A stretch of DNA of 64,000 nucleotides from an uncultured Acholeplasmatales bacterium (GCA_944324705.1 CALUXI010000005.1:7288-71287); one strand, 5' to 3'. Counted from the first letter of the stretch, positions 4,014 to 38,523 are shown. Notes: generated by a model from the sequence alone, not told the origin. Numbers and translations are program-made.

Positions 4014-4099
4014 TAACATTTTTTCTTATTCTGAGTAAATCAAAGAAACAAAAAAAGCCTTTAATAAGGCTGTAATTACAAAGTGGCGGAGCAGGAGGG
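4014..4099. repeat. attL: displaced copy of the tRNA-Ser 3' end plus its downstream terminator
   Basis: Identical to 38363-38448 except for 1 mismatch (G/A). Ends in TGGCGGAGCAGGAGGG, the last 16 nt of the tRNA including CCA. Confidence 0.85.
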
Positions 4100-4334: not shown

Positions 4335-4418
4335 AGAGAAAGCCCATTGCTTGTCTCTAGCGTGTTAAGTTGCTAATCATTAAAAAGAAAACCCTAGGAT
4401 GGCTGTCCTAGGGTTTTC
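4335..4418 (+). ncRNA. candidate antitoxin small RNA 2, convergent with the 34-aa peptide gene
   Basis: TTGACA (4301-4306), 16-nt spacer, TATAAT (4323-4328). No ORF. Ends at hairpin CCCTAGGA/TCCTAGGG (4392-4413), which has U-runs on both strands. Confidence 0.5.
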
Positions 4419-4693: not shown

Positions 4694-5596
4694 TTCAATA
4701 TTTGCACCTATCTTGCTATAGGTTTCTTTTATTATTTGTATACGCTCATCTAAAACGAATTTATAGTCATTAATAATAATTTTATTACCATTTCTAAATC
4801 CACTATATACTCCATTAGCTAAGGAAAAAGATAGTGTTAAAGCATTCATAATTGATTGAACTGTGTTAAAATTAGTTCCTATGTAAAAACAAGCTAAACA
4901 GTATGAAATAATTAAAGATATTATCATAAATGGTAAGTTATAGGAAAGATTAGTTTTAACTGCACTATAATAAATATTGTCAAAACTATCACCAGATTTA
5001 TTCTTATTATAATTTCTAAATACATCACTAGAAGTTAAATATTTTTGTTTAATCTTATCGATATCTAAAAATTTAAACTCTTTATCTGCATCATCATATT
5101 CTTTATATTTATTATTTTTAAGCAAGTTCTTTAATTCAATTACTTTCGTGGTATCTTCTTCTATCATTGTAAGATAATTAGCTATTCTAGGGCTTGCTGT
5201 TCTTTTTTGCCTTTTGAATTTATTGTATTTATACTTATACTGATTTAGTTTTAACAATGCTTTATCAAATCTTTTAAACTCACTCTCATAAAATAACACT
5301 TCATCAAATTTACTCATTTGATTTCTATTTAATATTTCACAGAATAAATTAACTATTGTTTTTTCACGTGTTGATATTTCATCGTTTAACATTGTTTTTT
5401 TACTAGAATATTGAGTAGATAAAACTTTAGCAAAAAAGCTGATACAGAAGTTAAGAATGAAAATATCATATTTGATTTTCGTAAATTCAAATTGAACGCT
5501 TAATAATTGAGTAAATAATACAATTGCTTCTAATGCTAGGACTTCAAGTATAAATATTATATCATCTTGATAATTCTTAATTTTATTTTTTATCAT
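4673..5596 (-). CDS. hypothetical membrane protein (307 aa)
   Basis: Hydrophobic helices at both ends and a Lys-rich middle. Located at the prophage end between the tail/lysis region and attL. Confidence 0.4.
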   Translation of the reverse strand: MIKNKIKNYQDDIIFILEVLALEAIVLFTQLLSVQFEFTKIKYDIFILNFCISFFAKVLSTQYSSKKTMLNDEISTREKTIVNLFCEILNRNQMSKFDEVLFYESEFKRFDKALLKLNQYKYKYNKFKRQKRTASPRIANYLTMIEEDTTKVIELKNLLKNNKYKEYDDADKEFKFLDIDKIKQKYLTSSDVFRNYNKNKSGDSFDNIYYSAVKTNLSYNLPFMIISLIISYCLACFYIGTNFNTVQSIMNALTLSFSLANGVYSGFRNGNKIIINDYKFVLDERIQIIKETYSKIGANIEKASQIG

Positions 5597-6063
5597 TATT
5601 TAAGCTCCTCTTTGACCCGTTTATATTTAGTTTTATAAGACCATCTAGGAAGAGGATTTATAACAATACCGCAAGCCACACTAACAAAAGACCACTGCAA
5701 TATATATTGTATTTTTTCTATGTTGTTGTTTATGCAGACACAACCTAAATAAGCTAAGCCAATCCAAACTAAACATTTTCTAAACCCGTTTAAACACTGG
5801 ATTATAAAAGAGTATTCAAAAGCATTTATAATATAACCAAGTAAAACATAAAGGGCTATAGCTCCAACTAATAAAGCTATAAGCCCCCAAGCGTTAAAAT
5901 CAATTCCACCGGTATCACGGCTAAACAATATAAATTTCTGGTTAATTAAAATAATAGGAACAACTGCAACCAAAACAACCCAAGCTAATAAACGAGGTAT
6001 AAATAATGCCTTGCTGTTCCATATTTTAACCCACTTATTAAAGGCTTTTTTCATTAATATCAA
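5596..6063 (-). CDS. hypothetical polytopic membrane protein (about 4 TM)
   Basis: 155 aa, mostly hydrophobic. Its stop overlaps the start of the next gene. Confidence 0.4.
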   Translation of the reverse strand: MILMKKAFNKWVKIWNSKALFIPRLLAWVVLVAVVPIILINQKFILFSRDTGGIDFNAWGLIALLVGAIALYVLLGYIINAFEYSFIIQCLNGFRKCLVWIGLAYLGCVCINNNIEKIQYILQWSFVSVACGIVINPLPRWSYKTKYKRVKEELK

Positions 6064-17355: not shown

Positions 17356-17460
17356 GATATGATTTGAGGTAGACAAATGCCGCCGTCTACGCTAGTTTGA
17401 GATGCTGGGACGATTATGGGCGTTAAGTCACATAACACGGCGGTCCAGCCAAATCATATC
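17356..17460 (-). ncRNA. ~105-nt GC-enriched structured element immediately after the MuF gene
   Basis: 11-bp closing stem GATATGATTTG/CAAATCATATC. Internal hairpins GCTGGAC/GTCCCAGC and GTAGAC/GTCTAC. CCGCC/GGCGG pseudoknot potential. Confidence 0.35.
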
Positions 17461-20942: not shown

Positions 20943-22346
20943 TTAAATTGCTTTTACTGCATATTTTGTCGCATCTATCATATGGTCATTGCCATCAATA
21001 GGCTTATTTGTCTTTTCATCTATCATTAAACTTAATGTTTCAACGATTAACATATCATCATCGCCAAGCATTCTAAAATTAGGGTGCTCATAGCTTTTCT
21101 TACTTGGAATAGTTAACGGGTCAACATACCCAGCATTTATGGTTATAAAATAATCAGGAACCGTATAAACATTTTGAAGCCTACGCATATCAAGTATTAC
21201 ATCTTTTTGCCCAACTGACATCGCATGATATTTAGTTGAGTTATTAAACTCAAGCATCATATCTTGGCTAGCACTATCTACGATAATTCTAATATCTAGA
21301 ACAGCTCCCAATTTGTAATACCATAGCCAGTAATCAAGCCAAGCCTCCATTAACTTAACTTGAATTGTAGGTGCTAAAGGACTATGCCCCCAATTAGCAG
21401 GATCATAATAATATCCTGGTAACCTTACAATTCTACCCATTGTAGTAATACATAAAATTGATAGTGTGGTTGCATCTATGATAGTACCAACATCACATCC
21501 AACTATAATTCTTGATACTCTTTCTATTGGATAAAATGCAAACTTCTTTATATCAATAACGTGCTTATTAACATCAAACATCGGATAGCATAAACCATCT
21601 GTCCCTACTACTTCTCCTAGGAATATGTTTTGATATTCTTTAAAATTTCGTTTTTTAGTGATTTCTGCTTCTTCGTAAAGTTCATCTCGTAGTATTCCTT
21701 TTGGCACTTGTAAGTAGGTAGAATGGTGAATCACCCTATCTTTTCTTTGATAGTGATATTCAATGTTAAGCCAGTGATTAAGTTCAGGCTTAGGGTTTGC
21801 AGTTCTAAAAACAACAAATCCATCAAATTTATAATCTTGATTAGAACGCATACAAGATAGAAGTATGCTTTGTATATCACTAGCTTTTTTAAACTCCTGT
21901 GTCTCTTCAAACCATATGTATTTTATATATCCTTTAGCAAACGTTATTGATTTTAATTTAGTAGGGTCATCACAACCATCAAATCTTATATATTGTGGGG
22001 TATCACTGTTTGGTAAATAGATTAATCTTTTGGGTACTCTTTGACGTTTCCATAAATGATTAACATCAAGCTTATCAATAGCTCTTTGCACTTGTTCTAT
22101 AACTGAACCCTCTAAACTTGTAGCTGTCATTCTTAATGCTAGTGCATGACTAATAATGCCACGTTCCCTATCTCGCATTATTCCAAGCACTAACTCTTCA
22201 GCAGTAAAGTAAGATTTCCCACTAGCACGCCCACCTTTCAAATCATAGTAGGTGTATTTTTTATTAGCTATATCAACATGTATTTGCCAAAATGCAGGAA
22301 GTATTAAATTTGATATATCTACCTTAGTCTTCCTTTGAACCTTCAT
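20943..22346 (-). CDS. terL: terminase large subunit (PBSX-like family)
   Basis: Walker A GGRASGKS near the N-terminus, and a C-terminal nuclease-like region. ATG at 22346 follows AAGGTG. Confidence 0.8.
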   Translation of the reverse strand: MKVQRKTKVDISNLILPAFWQIHVDIANKKYTYYDLKGGRASGKSYFTAEELVLGIMRDRERGIISHALALRMTATSLEGSVIEQVQRAIDKLDVNHLWKRQRVPKRLIYLPNSDTPQYIRFDGCDDPTKLKSITFAKGYIKYIWFEETQEFKKASDIQSILLSCMRSNQDYKFDGFVVFRTANPKPELNHWLNIEYHYQRKDRVIHHSTYLQVPKGILRDELYEEAEITKKRNFKEYQNIFLGEVVGTDGLCYPMFDVNKHVIDIKKFAFYPIERVSRIIVGCDVGTIIDATTLSILCITTMGRIVRLPGYYYDPANWGHSPLAPTIQVKLMEAWLDYWLWYYKLGAVLDIRIIVDSASQDMMLEFNNSTKYHAMSVGQKDVILDMRRLQNVYTVPDYFITINAGYVDPLTIPSKKSYEHPNFRMLGDDDMLIVETLSLMIDEKTNKPIDGNDHMIDATKYAVKAI

Positions 22347-22884
22347 TTTTAGCACCTTGTTCTTCTAATTTTTGTTTTATGTCATCTACAAACTCGATAC
22401 TACCTATCTTGTTAAGTTCATCATTTAAGTTCTTCATATTTAAGTCAAGACCTTTCTCAATAAATTTATCATCGTAATTTCTCAAGAGCATAGCACATGC
22501 TCTTTCATTTGGCGGGTAGTAATGTTCGACTACTTCTTGATGAACTATGACTCCATTCTTTCTTATTATTTTTGATTCGGTTTCTTTATAACCTAAAGCT
22601 TGTTTGAGTAAGCTAGCTTTGATTTCTAAAACAAGTTGTCGTGCGCCCGTGCGTAAAGCCTCGTTTAAATCGCTGTGCTCATTTTTCCAACGGTGCAACG
22701 TAGAAACATTAACACCTAAAACATCTGCTATTTCTTTATTAGTAGCACCTAATTTGACCCAATTTTTAATATTACTGAGATAAGGCTTAACATTATTTTC
22801 ATAACTAGATTTCTTAGATTTATTATGATTAACATCAGTTAGCATTCGATTTATTTGAGCATCTTTTTCAAGTACTTCTGACAT
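22324..22884 (-). CDS. terS: terminase small subunit (HTH)
   Basis: HTH segment NKEIADVLGVNVSTLHRWK; overlaps the terL start. Confidence 0.6.
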   Translation of the reverse strand: MSEVLEKDAQINRMLTDVNHNKSKKSSYENNVKPYLSNIKNWVKLGATNKEIADVLGVNVSTLHRWKNEHSDLNEALRTGARQLVLEIKASLLKQALGYKETESKIIRKNGVIVHQEVVEHYYPPNERACAMLLRNYDDKFIEKGLDLNMKNLNDELNKIGSIEFVDDIKQKLEEQGAKNEGSKED

Positions 22885-22962: not shown

Positions 22963-24072
22963 TTATTTAATATTACTTAGTAATTTATTAATTATATTAT
23001 TATTTAAATATTCCCAAGGGTATTTATTGTTACTAAAGTGACCGTAAGAAGCTAATGTTGAATAACTAGTAATATCTTTTAGTTTTAATTCTTCAATCAT
23101 ATTCTTTGGCGTAAAATCAAAAGTTTTTAAAACTGCATTATAAATCTTTCTAGCATTTACTTTATTAGTTCCAAAAAACTCAATGTTAATACTTACTGGT
23201 TCTGATTTACCAATGCAGTAAGCTACAGATACTTCACATCTTTTAGCCAAATTAGCAGTTACTATTGCTCTAGCAACATACCTAGCATAATAAGCACCAC
23301 TTCTATCAACTTTACTAGGGTCTTTACCACTAAAAGCTCCACCACCATGATGTGCTAAACCACCATATGTATCAACCATTAACTTTCTGCCTGTTAAACC
23401 ACTGTCAGCATCAGGACCACCTACTAAAAAAATACCAGTAGGATTAATTAATATTTGTGCATCTTTGTAAAAGTTGGTATCTATAACTTTACTGATACAT
23501 TCACTAATAATTAATTCTTTTAAAACATTTAGATCTATTTCTTTTTTAGTTTGAGTTGATATAACTATAGTTGTTACTTTTATAGCTTTGTTATTTCGAT
23601 ATAAAACTGATACTTGGCATTTGCCATCTGGAGCTAATAATTCAGGATACATATGTCTTACTTCTTCCATTTGCACTGATATTTTTCTTGCTAAAATGTA
23701 AGGTAAAGGTAGCATTTCTTCTGTTTCATCCGTTGCATATCCATACACTATCCCTTGGTCACCAGCACCATCTAGATCTACCCCTTTAGCAATATCAGGA
23801 CTTTGAATAGTGATGTTTTTTATTATTTCAAATGAGGATTTATAACCTATTTCATTTAATTTTTCTCTTACGATTTTGTCATAATCTAAATTGGCTTTAG
23901 TGGTAATCTCACCAAGTAAATATACTTGATGCTGTTTAATTGCTGTTTCAATTGCCACTCTTGAATTTTTATCTTGTTTTAGACATTCATCTAAAATAAC
24001 ATCACTTATTTGGTCACATACTTTATCTGGATGACCTCTAAATACTGATTCACTAGTTATTATTTTTTCCAT
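22963..24072 (-). CDS. metK: S-adenosylmethionine synthetase (phage-encoded MetK)
   Basis: GHPDKVCDQISD, GAGDQG and GGGAFSGKDPSKVDRS motifs. The ATG lies 1 nt after the methyltransferase stop codon. Confidence 0.9.
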   Translation of the reverse strand: MEKIITSESVFRGHPDKVCDQISDVILDECLKQDKNSRVAIETAIKQHQVYLLGEITTKANLDYDKIVREKLNEIGYKSSFEIIKNITIQSPDIAKGVDLDGAGDQGIVYGYATDETEEMLPLPYILARKISVQMEEVRHMYPELLAPDGKCQVSVLYRNNKAIKVTTIVISTQTKKEIDLNVLKELIISECISKVIDTNFYKDAQILINPTGIFLVGGPDADSGLTGRKLMVDTYGGLAHHGGGAFSGKDPSKVDRSGAYYARYVARAIVTANLAKRCEVSVAYCIGKSEPVSINIEFFGTNKVNARKIYNAVLKTFDFTPKNMIEELKLKDITSYSTLASYGHFSNNKYPWEYLNNNIINKLLSNIK

Positions 24073-24073
24073 T

Positions 24074-25308
24074 TTAAACACTTATTAATCCTTTCTCTCT
24101 TTCTTCTTTTATGATTTCAAGTTCGCTAAGTTTATAATTCTTACCCTCTCGAATTAAATAGCAATCATCTATATTTTCTTTTGATTGAGCATATCTTTTA
24201 ACGATAACATCAGTGTATCTTTCATCAAGTTCCATTGTATAGCAAATTCTATCTAGTTGGTCACTTGCTATTAAAGTGCTACCAGAACCGCCAAATAAAT
24301 CAAGCACAATTTCACCTATCTTACTAGAATTACTTATAGCCTTACCAACTAACTCTAGTGGTTTCATCGTTGGATGTAAACTGTTGCTTTTAGGTTTTGA
24401 AACTTCCCACACTGTATCTTGAGTTCTATCATCGATAAAATAATGACTTGCCCCCTCTTTCCAACCATAGAGAATAGGCTCGTGTCGCCAATGATAATCT
24501 TGTCTTCCTAAAACAAGTGAATTCTTAACCCAAATTAAGCATTCTGCAATTTTAAAACCTGCTTCTTTAAATGCACGCCTAAAATTAAGTCCTTCACTAT
24601 CGGCATGACAGCAATATATAACCCCCCCGATTTGATATTTTCAAACATATTTTTAAATGCAGATAGTAAAAAATTATAGAAGTCACTATCACTTTGCTTA
24701 TCGTTTTGGATTTTCATACCGTCTTGTCCTTCGTAATCCACATTGTACGGAGGGTCAGTAAAAATTAAATCTGCTAAATTATTATTCATTAATTCTTTGA
24801 CATCATCAGCTAGAGTTGAATCACCACACATTACTCTATGTTTGCCTAGAACGTAAATGTCGCCCTTCATAGAAAAAGGCACTTCAGGAATTAGTGCCTC
24901 TTCATCAAAATTATCATCTACAACTTCTTTTTGTAAAAGCTCCGTTAAATCATCAAATCCAAATTGTGTCATGCCTATATTATCAAGCTCTTTTAGCTCA
25001 GACACTAACTTATCAAAATCCCACTCAGCCAATTCAGACGTTTTATTATCGGCAATTCTAAATGCTTTTATTTGTTCTTCAGTTAAATCATCTGCTACGA
25101 TACATGGTACTTCTTTAAAACCTAACTTCTTACTAGCTTTTAATCTTGTATGACCTGCTACTATGACGTTGTTTTTATCAACAATAATAGGAACTTTAAA
25201 ACCAAATTCACGGATAGAATTAGCTACTGCCTCTACTGCATCATCATTTTTTCTAGGGTTATTTTCATAAGCTATTAAATCATTAATATTTTTAAAAGTT
25301 ATTTCCAT
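24074..25308 (-). pseudogene. ParB-like nuclease domain / DNA methyltransferase fusion, interrupted by a frameshift in a G7 tract
   Basis: N-part has a ParB-like domain plus DPPYN. C-part has HPTMKP and FGGSGST. Adding one G at 24622-24628 restores a continuous 411-aa frame (..SGGVIYCCHADSEGLNFRRAFKEAGF..). Confidence 0.8.
24622..24628. repeat. C7/G7 homopolymer at the methyltransferase frameshift site
   Basis: acCCCCCCCga on the plus strand; unusual in this AT-rich sequence. Confidence 0.9.
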
Positions 25309-25330
25309 AAAAATCCTCACTTTTTTGCAA

Positions 25331-25557: not shown

Positions 25558-25962
25558 TTAATGATTTAAACTCATTTTACATAATTTTTTATATGCTTGA
25601 GATTTAATCTGCCTCACATATCCATATGAGTAGTTCATCTTTTGGCTTATTTGAAATAGTGTCAACCCTTGAACATAGTATAACTGAATAATAATTTTAT
25701 CATCAGTTTTAGTTAAATGTTCTAAATACTCACCAATTCTATTTTCTATTTCAGTTATTTCTGTTTGTTTGTGTCGCCACTCACGTATTAGCTGACAATA
25801 TTGTGCATACTTTTCCTCAAGATCAGATGGAACACCACCAATAGTTCGTTCCCTAAATTGTGGACTTGATAAAAATCTACAGTTATCTATTTTATTCTCA
25901 AGTACTATCAATTCAAATTTCTTTGTTTTTAAATCTTTAACTAAAACTTCAAATTCACTCAT
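25558..25962 (-). CDS. sigma-70 region-4-like / ArpU-like late transcription regulator
   Basis: C-terminal HTH LTLFQISQKMNYSYGYVRQIKSQAYKKL. Lies upstream of the packaging genes. Confidence 0.55.
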   Translation of the reverse strand: MSEFEVLVKDLKTKKFELIVLENKIDNCRFLSSPQFRERTIGGVPSDLEEKYAQYCQLIREWRHKQTEITEIENRIGEYLEHLTKTDDKIIIQLYYVQGLTLFQISQKMNYSYGYVRQIKSQAYKKLCKMSLNH

Positions 25963-35802: not shown

Positions 35803-36792
35803 ATGGAAAATGAAAAAGAGGAACTAAAAATAGAAACATTAATGTTAAATAAAAGCATTGAAGCTTTTCTAATGTCAATAGAAATTTATAATAAACCAAC
35901 TATAAAATATAGACTAGAAGGCTTCAGTTTTTTCATATGCAATGCGTGGGAACTATTATTAAAAGCAAAAATGTTAAAAGATGGTAAAAATATATACTAT
36001 GAAGATAAACCTAATAGAACAATATCATTAAATAAGTGTTTGGATAATATATTTACCAATGAAAAAGATTATATTAGAAAAAATCTTGAAATTATTATTA
36101 ATCTTAGGAACACTGCTACTCATTATATAATTAAAGAATTAGATTTAATCTATTTGCCTTTTATGCAAGCAAACGTTTTAAACTATTCACAAAAGCTTTA
36201 CGATTTTTTTAACGTTGATATTACAGAAAAAATAAGTAGTTCTTTTTTAACTTTGGTAGCAAATCAAGAGCAAGTAAATGATGAGAAAATATTAAGCACA
36301 TACGGAAATAATATATTTAACCATTATATAAAAATAAAAAACGAAACTCAAAACATTATTAATGAGAGTCAAAATGATAAATTGGCTATAAAAGTTGATA
36401 TGAATATAAAGATAGTAAAAGATACAGACAAAGCACAAGCTACATTTAGAATAGCTAAAGATGGCGAAGAACCTATAAAAATTATAAAGGAAATTAAGGA
36501 TGTAAACTTAATATATTGTTATACACAAAAAAGAGTAAGAGAAATAGTAGTAGATAGATTAAAAAGAAAAAATATTTCTATTAAATTTACTCAGTATGAA
36601 TTAAATTTATTATGTGATAAATATAACTTAAAGGATGATGAAAAATATTATTACTATCACCAGTTAACAAGTCGTTGGGGATGTTCTCAACAACTAATAG
36701 ATTTTATAGTTAATTTATTTACTTCTAATCCAAATATTTTAGACGATATTAAAAATGAATTCAAAACAAATCATTACAATAAAAAAGATTAG
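35803..36792 (+). CDS. uncharacterised helical protein with an R-x4-H motif (HEPN-like; DUF3644-like from memory)
   Basis: 329 aa. LRNTATH at aa 101-107 (R-x4-H = R102-H107, nt 36106-36123). Co-transcribed with the lysogeny genes. Confidence 0.4.
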   Translation: MENEKEELKIETLMLNKSIEAFLMSIEIYNKPTIKYRLEGFSFFICNAWELLLKAKMLKDGKNIYYEDKPNRTISLNKCLDNIFTNEKDYIRKNLEIIINLRNTATHYIIKELDLIYLPFMQANVLNYSQKLYDFFNVDITEKISSSFLTLVANQEQVNDEKILSTYGNNIFNHYIKIKNETQNIINESQNDKLAIKVDMNIKIVKDTDKAQATFRIAKDGEEPIKIIKEIKDVNLIYCYTQKRVREIVVDRLKRKNISIKFTQYELNLLCDKYNLKDDEKYYYYHQLTSRWGCSQQLIDFIVNLFTSNPNILDDIKNEFKTNHYNKKD

Positions 36793-36957: not shown

Positions 36958-37158
36958 ATGATTAAAGAAAACAACATTTTAAATTTATTAATTAAAAATT
37001 TAAAGACTGGTGATGAACTAGCCGAGTATTTAGGGCTAACATTAAAGGAAACCGAGGACTATATTTTAATGCGTAAATTTTTACCTTGGCAAATTGCTTT
37101 TCTTTGCTCTAAATTTTTTAATGTAAACCCCGAAGAGGTTATTTATGCCAGCATATAA
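36958..37158 (+). CDS. small HTH protein (excisionase/regulator candidate)
   Basis: 66 aa; overlaps the integrase start. Confidence 0.35.
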   Translation: MIKENNILNLLIKNLKTGDELAEYLGLTLKETEDYILMRKFLPWQIAFLCSKFFNVNPEEVIYASI

Positions 37159-38257
37159 ATACACAGATTCAAAAGGCAAAAAACGCTGGTATTTTCAAGG
37201 AATGTATAAAGGGGTCCATTATTGCCGGAGGGTTTGGCAAGGTAAGCCAATGCTTACTAAAATTGAAGCTGTTAATGCTGAATATTACTATTTAGCTCAA
37301 CTCAATTATAAAGAGGCTAATACACCATTAACACAAACTTTCCTATTTGAACTTTGGGATGAATACGTATCTACTAAAGTAGTCAAAGATACTACTAAAA
37401 GGCGATTTGACATTTTTAAGAAAAATTACTTATTACCTATAGGCAACGTTAGACTTGATACTATAACAGTTCAAATGTTACTTCAATGGCGTAAAAAACT
37501 AGAAAAGAAAAGCATAGTTACTTCTTCTAAAAATAAAATATTACAATTTATGCGAAGCTTAATTCAATATGGAATTGATGCATATCAAATGTCTAGCAAA
37601 CTTATAGTGGTATTACGAGAACCATTTAAAGATTACTCAATAAAGAAACATGAAAGTAAACAAGTAATATATACAGATGATGAGTTTAATAAATTTATTA
37701 AAACTTTTGAAAATGATTATATGAGCCAAAATTATAAATTACTTTTTTGCTTGCTTTATTATACAGGATTAAGAATAAGTGAACTAATGGCGTTACGGTT
37801 TAATGATTATAAATTTGATGGTAAAATTCACGTGTATAGGCAGTGGCAAGTAATAGATCGTGTCGGTCAATTTACAAGTTTAAAAACAGATAACAGCAAC
37901 CGCATTGTTACTTTAGATGATCTCACTAGAAAACAACTTGAAGATTTTATAGAACTTACTAAAAAAATAATTAAAGACTTTAAAAAAGACTGGTTCTTTT
38001 TCTTTGGTGATAAGCCAATAAACGAACAAAAGATACGGCGTATTTGTAAAGAACATAGTGATATAGCTAAATTACCACATATTAAATTACATGGTTTTAG
38101 ACATAGCCACGCCACTTATTTACGTAATATGGGATATGATGAATGGACCATAAGTCAAAGATTAGGTAATGATCCAACAACTGCCTCAAAAACTTATATT
38201 CACGCATCTAGTAAAGATGATGAGGAAGTTGCTAAAGCTATAAAAAGAAAAACCTAG
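37145..38257 (+). CDS. int: tyrosine integrase
   Basis: GLRISELMALR, HGFRHSHATYL and KTYIH catalytic-motif pattern; adjacent to attR and the tRNA. Confidence 0.85.
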   Translation: MPAYKYTDSKGKKRWYFQGMYKGVHYCRRVWQGKPMLTKIEAVNAEYYYLAQLNYKEANTPLTQTFLFELWDEYVSTKVVKDTTKRRFDIFKKNYLLPIGNVRLDTITVQMLLQWRKKLEKKSIVTSSKNKILQFMRSLIQYGIDAYQMSSKLIVVLREPFKDYSIKKHESKQVIYTDDEFNKFIKTFENDYMSQNYKLLFCLLYYTGLRISELMALRFNDYKFDGKIHVYRQWQVIDRVGQFTSLKTDNSNRIVTLDDLTRKQLEDFIELTKKIIKDFKKDWFFFFGDKPINEQKIRRICKEHSDIAKLPHIKLHGFRHSHATYLRNMGYDEWTISQRLGNDPTTASKTYIHASSKDDEEVAKAIKRKT

Positions 38258-38362: not shown

Positions 38363-38448
38363 TAACATTTTTTCTTATTCTGAGTAAATCAAAAAAACAA
38401 AAAAAGCCTTTAATAAGGCTGTAATTACAAAGTGGCGGAGCAGGAGGG
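38363..38448. repeat. attR: repeat overlapping the 3' end of the intact tRNA-Ser
   Basis: 85 of 86 nt identical to 4014-4099. Confidence 0.85.
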
Positions 38449-38523
38449 ATTCGAACCCTCGCACCAGTTACCCGGTCTACTTCCTTAGCAGGGAAGCCTC
38501 TTGAGCCTCTTGAGTACTGCTCC
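38433..38523 (-). tRNA. tRNA-Ser (anticodon GCT), class II with a long variable arm
   Basis: Acceptor GGAGCAG/CTGCTCC, anticodon stem CTTCC/GGAAG with loop CTGCTAA, T-arm GAGGG-TTCGAAT-CCCTC, encoded CCA. Confidence 0.9.

Follow-up and report, generated by a model that had tools for sequence, protein, structure and literature searches.

Genes for S-adenosylmethionine (SAM) synthetase, metK, are well documented in phages: a MetK match is found in 141 GenBank phage records, 94 of them from Streptococcus phages, and most of these matches are annotated as 'S-adenosylmethionine synthetase'. In the Streptococcus phages (phi1207.3 orf29, phi-m46.1 ORF25, the Javan prophages and GBS 12/111phiA), which are temperate phages of the Bacillota, the gene encodes a full three-domain MetK and lies a few genes from a ParB-domain N6/N4 methylase, just upstream of the terminase genes terS and terL. 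The usual order is MetK, (HNH), methylase(s), often with an extra C5 methylase. In phi1207.3, orf32 encodes a 410-aa ParB-domain DNA methylase upstream of terS, and the phage MetK (orf29) was suggested to be a source of methyl donor for the phage methylases (orf32 and orf33) (PMC4260502). Among Ca. Heliusvirales, temperate gut phages of Bacillota, 58.9% of genomes carry metK (K00789) and 67% carry a (cytosine) DNA methyltransferase, making these the two commonest 'auxiliary' genes of the order (PMC11283538). The prophage metK of Streptococcus agalactiae 12/111phiA has been deleted, with changes in flocculation, chain length, glycocalyx and biofilm; the study reported host aggregation and biofilm, with DNA methylation outside its measurements (PMC8223999). 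No test of phage MetK supporting phage DNA methylation or restriction escape was found in the literature searched. The host SAM pool is also the target of another phage gene linked to restriction and defence, that for the T3 SAM lyase (SAMase), which cleaves SAM and inhibits MetK, evading Type I R-M and BREX (bioRxiv 10.1101/2023.02.27.530186). This protein is unrelated to MetK and works in the opposite direction, as SAM is destroyed rather than made.

The window analyzed here, a stretch of 64,000 nucleotides from an uncultured Acholeplasmatales bacterium, contains a prophage metK (Table 1) that resembles those of the Streptococcus phages: it likewise encodes a full three-domain MetK, belongs to a temperate Bacillota phage, and has a ParB-domain N6/N4 methylase gene nearby and terS and terL just downstream. 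Several features set it apart: the Streptococcus phage MetKs are 47-49% identical to the window MetK and belong to different MetK clades, the window has the methylase first and then MetK, with the two genes overlapping or abutting, and the window methylase carries a frameshift at a G tract. The best GenBank phage match is the Anaerosphaera heliusvirus, in which MetK is followed directly by a ParB-methylase, although heliusvirus MetKs reach 50.6% identity at best and the likeness to that order is known here from MetK alone. In addition, the window TerL is of the Terminase_3 type, whereas the nearest MetK relatives carry a PF03354-type TerL. The gene kind, its neighborhood and its proposed role are thus already in print, and the novelty implied by the first-pass annotation of this DNA falls away in view of the many annotated phage MetKs, the role discussed for phi1207.3, the frequency of metK in Ca. 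Heliusvirales and the one deletion described above.

Table 1. Features of the prophage and of the methylase-metK-terminase block, numbered from the first letter of the window.
Feature	Position	Strand	Evidence and remarks
att repeat, far end of prophage	4046..4099		exact 54-bp match to 38395-38448
terminase large subunit (terL)	20943..22355	-	PF04466 Terminase_3, E 1.8e-25; phrog_3717
terminase small subunit (terS)	22324..22884	-	phrog_309, E 1.7e-27; 78 nt 3' of metK
prophage metK	22963..24081	-	Pfam PF00438, PF02772, PF02773; TIGR01034; phrog_1569; motifs; AF2 model
ParB_N + beta-class N6/N4 DNA methyltransferase	24074..25320	-	Pfam ParB_N + N6_N4_Mtase N- and C-terminal halves; phrog_498; PADLOC
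Shine-Dalgarno-like AAAGGA	24089..24094	-	read from sequence; 7 nt 5' of GTG 24081, 16 nt 5' of ATG 24072
G7 homopolymer in methylase, K-S-G-G codons	24622..24628	-	frameshift; one extra G gives a single open frame
sigma-70 region 4 / DUF1492-type regulator	25558..25962	-	PF04545, PF07374, phrog_36; directly upstream of methylase-metK-terminase block
att repeat at tRNA-Ser(gct)	38395..38448		54-bp repeat; overlaps 3' end of tRNA-Ser(gct) 38433-38523; adjoins integrase gene

The first-pass annotation recognized a full-length MetK with all hallmark motifs, and profile, motif and fold comparisons agree. In its 369-aa form, counted from the ATG, the protein has the three MetK domains one after another, with PF00438 on residues 3-81, PF02772 on 102-215 and PF02773 on 217-354 (E 2e-32 to 3e-60). 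It scores 453 bits against TIGR01034, the NCBIfam metK equivalog (EC 2.5.1.6), above the curated cutoff of 309.4, and 442 bits against the phage MetK profile phrog_1569 (E 3e-132), covering profile positions 2-345 of 346. Alignment to the E. coli and Thermus MetK structures places the motifs GHPDK (13), RVAIE (38), QSPDI (90), GAGDQG (102) and DGKCQ (149) in the first half of the protein, and GGPDADSGLTGRK (218), DTYGG (234), HGGGAFSGKD (242) and KVDR (254) in the second. The catalytic and ligand-binding residues of E. coli MetK are H14, D16, E42, D118, K165, D238, R244, K245, K265, K269 and D271, and these positions are matched in the prophage protein within GHPDK, RVAIE, GAGDQG, DGKCQ, GGPDADSGLTGRK, HGGGAFSGKD and KVDR. 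Across 27 phage and host MetKs, 76 alignment columns are invariant, including H14, D16, K17, E42, D105, K151, R229, K230, K250, K254 and D256. The closest homologues are 55-59% identical, with none above 59% among the matches listed from a collection of 5.8 billion proteins, and each catalytic motif is kept in at least 118 of 121 sequences (120 listed matches and the window translation). This retention of motifs despite divergence fits a working enzyme.

An AF2 model of the prophage MetK, built on 22 sequences, has a pLDDT of 84.5 and a pTM of 0.84, with low confidence at residues 228-249 and at about 95-110. The best 50 Foldseek matches to this model are all methionine adenosyltransferases (MATs), with E values of 1e-41 to 1e-43 and TM scores of 0.85-0.91 to solved MATs; PDB 8bb1 is among the fold matches. 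MATs make SAM from methionine and ATP, in an active site that is built at the interface of a dimer. The gene therefore encodes a complete MetK with a predicted three-repeat MAT fold, and on the strength of its sequence and predicted fold the product is expected to be a catalytically competent methionine adenosyltransferase. Cellular MetKs (E. coli, PDB 1FUG and 7LL3, and the host's own copy) have the same domains, catalytic residues and fold, and the prophage protein is 45-47% identical to solved structures. It is, however, about 15 residues shorter than cellular MetK, with 8 residues missing beyond the 'IGY' strand, as is typical of the phage clade. The stretch from QSPDI to GAGDQG, in the region of the active-site gating loop, also differs in length, with 7 residues in the prophage MetK compared to 11 in the host copy and 12 in E. 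coli; the 7-residue form is common to 108 of the 121 sequences kept.

Two start codons are available to the prophage metK: the GTG (24081) would give a protein of 372 aa, and the ATG (24072) one of 369 aa. The first-pass annotation correctly placed the ATG (24072-24070) 1 nt after the methylase stop codon, with the TAA at 24076-24074 and a lone spacer base at 24073. Nevertheless, the GTG is the likelier start, since the AAAGGA is the only Shine-Dalgarno-like sequence ahead of metK and is better placed for the GTG; initiation there would give an 8-nt overlap with the 3' end of the methylase gene. A search of Rfam found no SAM riboswitch or other Rfam element near the prophage metK or the host metK, which rules out the reading that the prophage gene was captured together with a riboswitch.

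The prophage extends over about 34.3 kb between exact 54-bp direct repeats, and is integrated into the 3' end of the tRNA-Ser(gct) gene, with a tyrosine integrase gene (PF00589) at 37145-38257 beside the repeat at that end. As the first-pass annotation had it, metK lies inside the prophage between the methylase and terS; it is 14-19 kb inside both repeats. Beyond terS and terL are a portal gene and a gene for a MuF-like head protein, and tail genes are present as well as those for integrase, terminase and portal. Between positions 22200 and 26200, no terminator-like site was found, and promoter-like matches are no commoner than in shuffled sequence. Given that the genes share one strand, that they abut or overlap at the metK start, that no terminator-like site interrupts them and that a sigma-like regulator lies just upstream, the methylase-metK-terminase block is the apparent start of a single late transcript, from which methylase, metK, terS and terL would be co-transcribed late.

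Two further elements were seen elsewhere in the prophage. A match to the Rfam skipping-rope RNA (RF02924) at 17359-17457 on the plus strand scores 40.3 bits, compared to a gathering score of 36.7, and lies, antisense to the phage genes, in the 530 bp that separate the MuF-like gene from the scaffold gene. In the lysogeny module, a plus-strand gene at 35803-36792 encodes DUF3644 and an EC042_2821 restriction-endonuclease-like domain and matches the PADLOC candidate family PDC-S19 (E 6e-108); this is likely a prophage-borne defence gene.

The pairing of MetK with a ParB-type methylase extends well beyond this prophage, and the survey of related phages proposed in the first-pass annotation has now been run. 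The three nearest metagenomic relatives whose contigs were inspected (five loci) have a ParB_N-N6_N4 methylase of 418-419 aa, then MetK, then HNH, with TerL further on, and of the six extra MetK copies fetched from related genomes, five are in prophages with the order methylase-MetK-HNH-TerL. A ParB-type methylase directly adjoins MetK on the same strand at 20 of 21 IMG/VR loci retrieved with the protein. Of nine GenBank phages inspected, eight have a methylase directly after MetK or no more than about 2 kb away. These counts come from samples that are not phylogenetically independent, and more weight attaches to the range of lineages and gene orders in which the pairing occurs. The eight are the Anaerosphaera, Evtepia and Clostridium heliusviruses, NatCom_35866, Javan244, Javan630, phi-m46.1 and a Mycoplasmopsis phage, and FP_Brigit is the sole phage of the nine without the pairing. 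Among chromosomal MetKs, a ParB-methylase neighbor was found in none of 17 within 1.5-kb flanks. The pairing is scattered over five or more deep lineages of the MetK tree, with the two genes in either order, and has therefore been kept or re-formed repeatedly rather than inherited once. The window MetK shows the same marks of a phage-borne pairing, namely a match to phrog_1569, a position inside a phage, an adjacent methylase on the same strand and packaging genes nearby. Judged by gene content and order, MetK and the ParB-fused N6/N4 methyltransferase form a conserved two-gene phage module that heads the late (packaging and structural) block. Homologues of the ParB-methylase occur in 651 phage records compared to 141 for MetK, so that ParB-methylases can function in the absence of MetK, which is better seen as an optional helper.

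Other observations from these surveys concern related or misleading loci. Apparent phage MetK matches in Helicobacter were set aside, as they are the host metK at a prophage integration site and not phage genes. The IMG/VR loci L050-L057 (genes at about 5001-6032) carry a very divergent MetK-like clade, at 42-45% identity, that abuts a ParB-methylase. In L054, the only member of the clade that was read, GHPDK, GAGDQG and GLTGRK are kept, while DTYGG is replaced by DAYQS, HGGGAFSGKD by VGSRCMNGKD and KVDRS by KVDIS; activity in this clade may be altered or lost. In the phages with the nearest MetK relatives, a pair of genes for Amidoligase_2 and GGACT (gamma-glutamyl cyclotransferase-like) lies between the MetK-HNH block and TerL (L026 8090-9438, L027 9308-10759 and L029 8039-9432). 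This pair is absent from the window prophage.

The first-pass annotation was right that metK immediately follows a phage DNA methyltransferase gene, but it missed that this gene is frameshifted at a run of seven G residues. Both genes are on the minus strand, which refines that annotation. In the assembly, the methylase is split into two ORFs, 24535-25320 with the ParB_N domain and the DPPY half, and 24074-24412 with the FGGSG half. Together they cover positions 33-273 and 348-443 of phrog_498, match the PADLOC model MTase_II PDLC03229 and are 66-75% identical to an intact 418-aa homologue (locus L027). A distant IMG/VR lineage with the MetK-methylase pair has a G run at the same K-S-G-G codons, and tract length differs among IMG/VR phages with nearly identical MetKs: L054 has G8 (in frame, position 4410), L057 has G6 (about 4411) and in L053 an extra A follows the G8 (4409), while the L051 contig has its boundary at the tract (1-8). 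Because tract length varies among near-identical phages, a slippage-prone on/off switch is suggested, and is favored over simple decay. In the window, the G7 tract may alternatively be an assembly error rather than a true frameshift. The idea that the partner is a non-specific adenine methylase like M.EcoGII, which would explain a large SAM demand, was dropped as having no basis for transfer, given that the M.EcoGII paper names no ParB domain; it remains speculation.

A further and rather improbable extension is that MetK and the ParB-methyltransferase act as one coupled, phase-variable 'methylation unit'. Phage subpopulations would then toggle DNA methylation through the hypermutable G tract of the methylase, and perhaps SAM synthesis as well, through translational coupling where the metK start meets the methylase stop. 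Another option is that MetK docks with the methylase, so that SAM would be made where DNA is packaged. If such a unit exists, it would amount to bet-hedging between methylation-dependent and methylation-sensitive host defences.

For the function of the prophage MetK, the reading given somewhat better than an even chance is that it supplies SAM late in infection for the methylation of progeny DNA by the partner methylase. After induction, the late regulator would drive one transcript running from the methylase through metK, terS and terL onwards. The phage MetK would convert methionine and ATP to SAM, free of the control exerted on the host metK, and the SAM pool would thus be non-limiting for methylation of the burst of new genomes before or during packaging. 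Methylated virion DNA would in turn resist restriction in the next host. This sequence of events presumes that SAM supply would otherwise be limiting for phage methylation. Self-methylation, one of the roles raised in the first-pass annotation, is favored here because the linkage of MetK with a methylase is conserved across many phages. Several observations run counter to a role in methylation. In this prophage the partner methylase is out of frame while MetK is intact and, due to the G7 frameshift, the prophage as sequenced would produce MetK but no functional phage methylase, barring slippage of the tract or an erroneous base call. In addition, ParB-methylases are found in more phage records than MetK (651 compared to 141), the only prophage metK to have been deleted gave host phenotypes (PMC8223999), and the window MetK has a long terminal branch.

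The first-pass annotation also allowed that the gene was simply a captured host gene, or the host's housekeeping copy enclosed by misdrawn prophage borders. The only point in favor of either is that GC3 is close in the two copies (0.134 in the prophage metK and 0.128 in the host metK), which fits amelioration to the 27% GC host and is weak evidence. A second metK is present in the host genome (1.64 Mb, 97% complete), on another contig, C8, where it is flanked by the core genes priA, fmt, secA and hpf; it encodes 383 aa and scores higher against TIGR01034, at 588 bits. The two proteins are only 49-51% identical, depending on the tool used. In the phylogeny called for in the first-pass annotation, a maximum-likelihood tree (LG+C20), the prophage MetK falls in a separate 24-row clade with support of 99/98, and its phage clade is recovered in a larger MetK tree with support of 97. 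This clade is made up of metagenomic (phage) sequences and of additional or prophage MetKs from related genomes within the same order. The host MetK, on the other hand, pairs with a genome of the same genus and is nested within the chromosomal MetKs of the same family. The terminal branch of the prophage MetK is long (0.55-0.72). With the host metK on its own contig, the placement of the prophage copy in a phage clade and the att borders 14-19 kb away, the prophage metK is neither a trapped housekeeping gene nor a recent host capture, and misdrawn borders are considered extremely unlikely. The host also has an open frame of 570 aa for an HsdM-like N6_Mtase (G000:C2:104212-105198), pointing to a restriction system of Type I or IIG, which the phage methylase might need to evade.

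Of the remaining accounts, lysogenic conversion draws on the host phenotypes altered by deletion and plasmid complementation of the 12/111phiA prophage metK, although complementation was incomplete and the study noted secondary mutations (PMC8223999). Under this account, MetK would be expressed in the lysogen and raise host SAM (with effects on AI-2, polyamines and host methylation), altering aggregation or biofilm rather than phage methylation, and an intact MetK next to a frameshifted methylase would be in keeping with it. Conversion is unlikely given that metK is placed on the lytic strand with the late regulator before it and the terminase genes after it, with no terminator of its own and with promoter-like matches no commoner than in shuffled sequence. 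Genes for lysogenic conversion are usually at prophage ends, and metK is away from them; its linkage to methylase and packaging genes is, furthermore, conserved across phage lineages. That the enzyme counters changes in the SAM pool independently of the phage methylase, by offsetting depletion through a host response or through the SAM lyase of a rival phage, or by perturbing SAM-dependent defences such as Type I R-M or BREX, is given a similarly small chance. The level of SAM is a known battleground, as T3 SAM lyase illustrates (bioRxiv 10.1101/2023.02.27.530186), the host encodes the HsdM-like N6_Mtase, and MetK is intact though the methylase is off. Against this, the prophage MetK matches none of the PADLOC defence or anti-defence families, and in the literature searched neither a SAM-depleting defence nor an anti-defence role for phage MetK was found. 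Extra SAM would also be expected to aid, not hinder, SAM-dependent restriction, and such a role leaves the near-universal adjacency of the methylase unexplained. It is very unlikely that the module has been shut down permanently here, leaving metK as a still undamaged remnant that lacks a present function, as the frameshifted methylase, the long terminal branch of MetK and the lack of homologues above 59% identity among the matches listed might suggest. MetK is full length with all of its catalytic motifs, the att repeats are intact, integrase, terminase, portal and tail genes are present, and the damage to the methylase is a single-base homopolymer change of a kind that varies among near-identical phages (G6, G8, G8 and an extra A), suggesting a reversible switch.

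New here is a divergent MetK lineage with less than 60% identity to anything among the matches listed from the 5.8-billion-protein collection, in a locus that offers a natural contrast between an intact MetK and a methylase turned off at a homopolymer. The existing picture is left unchanged, and the value of the locus lies in the function of a very common phage module and in this natural methylase-off, MetK-intact state. Phages are best known for the destruction of SAM, yet in gut and oral Bacillota many temperate phages encode an enzyme that makes SAM, tied to their DNA methylase.
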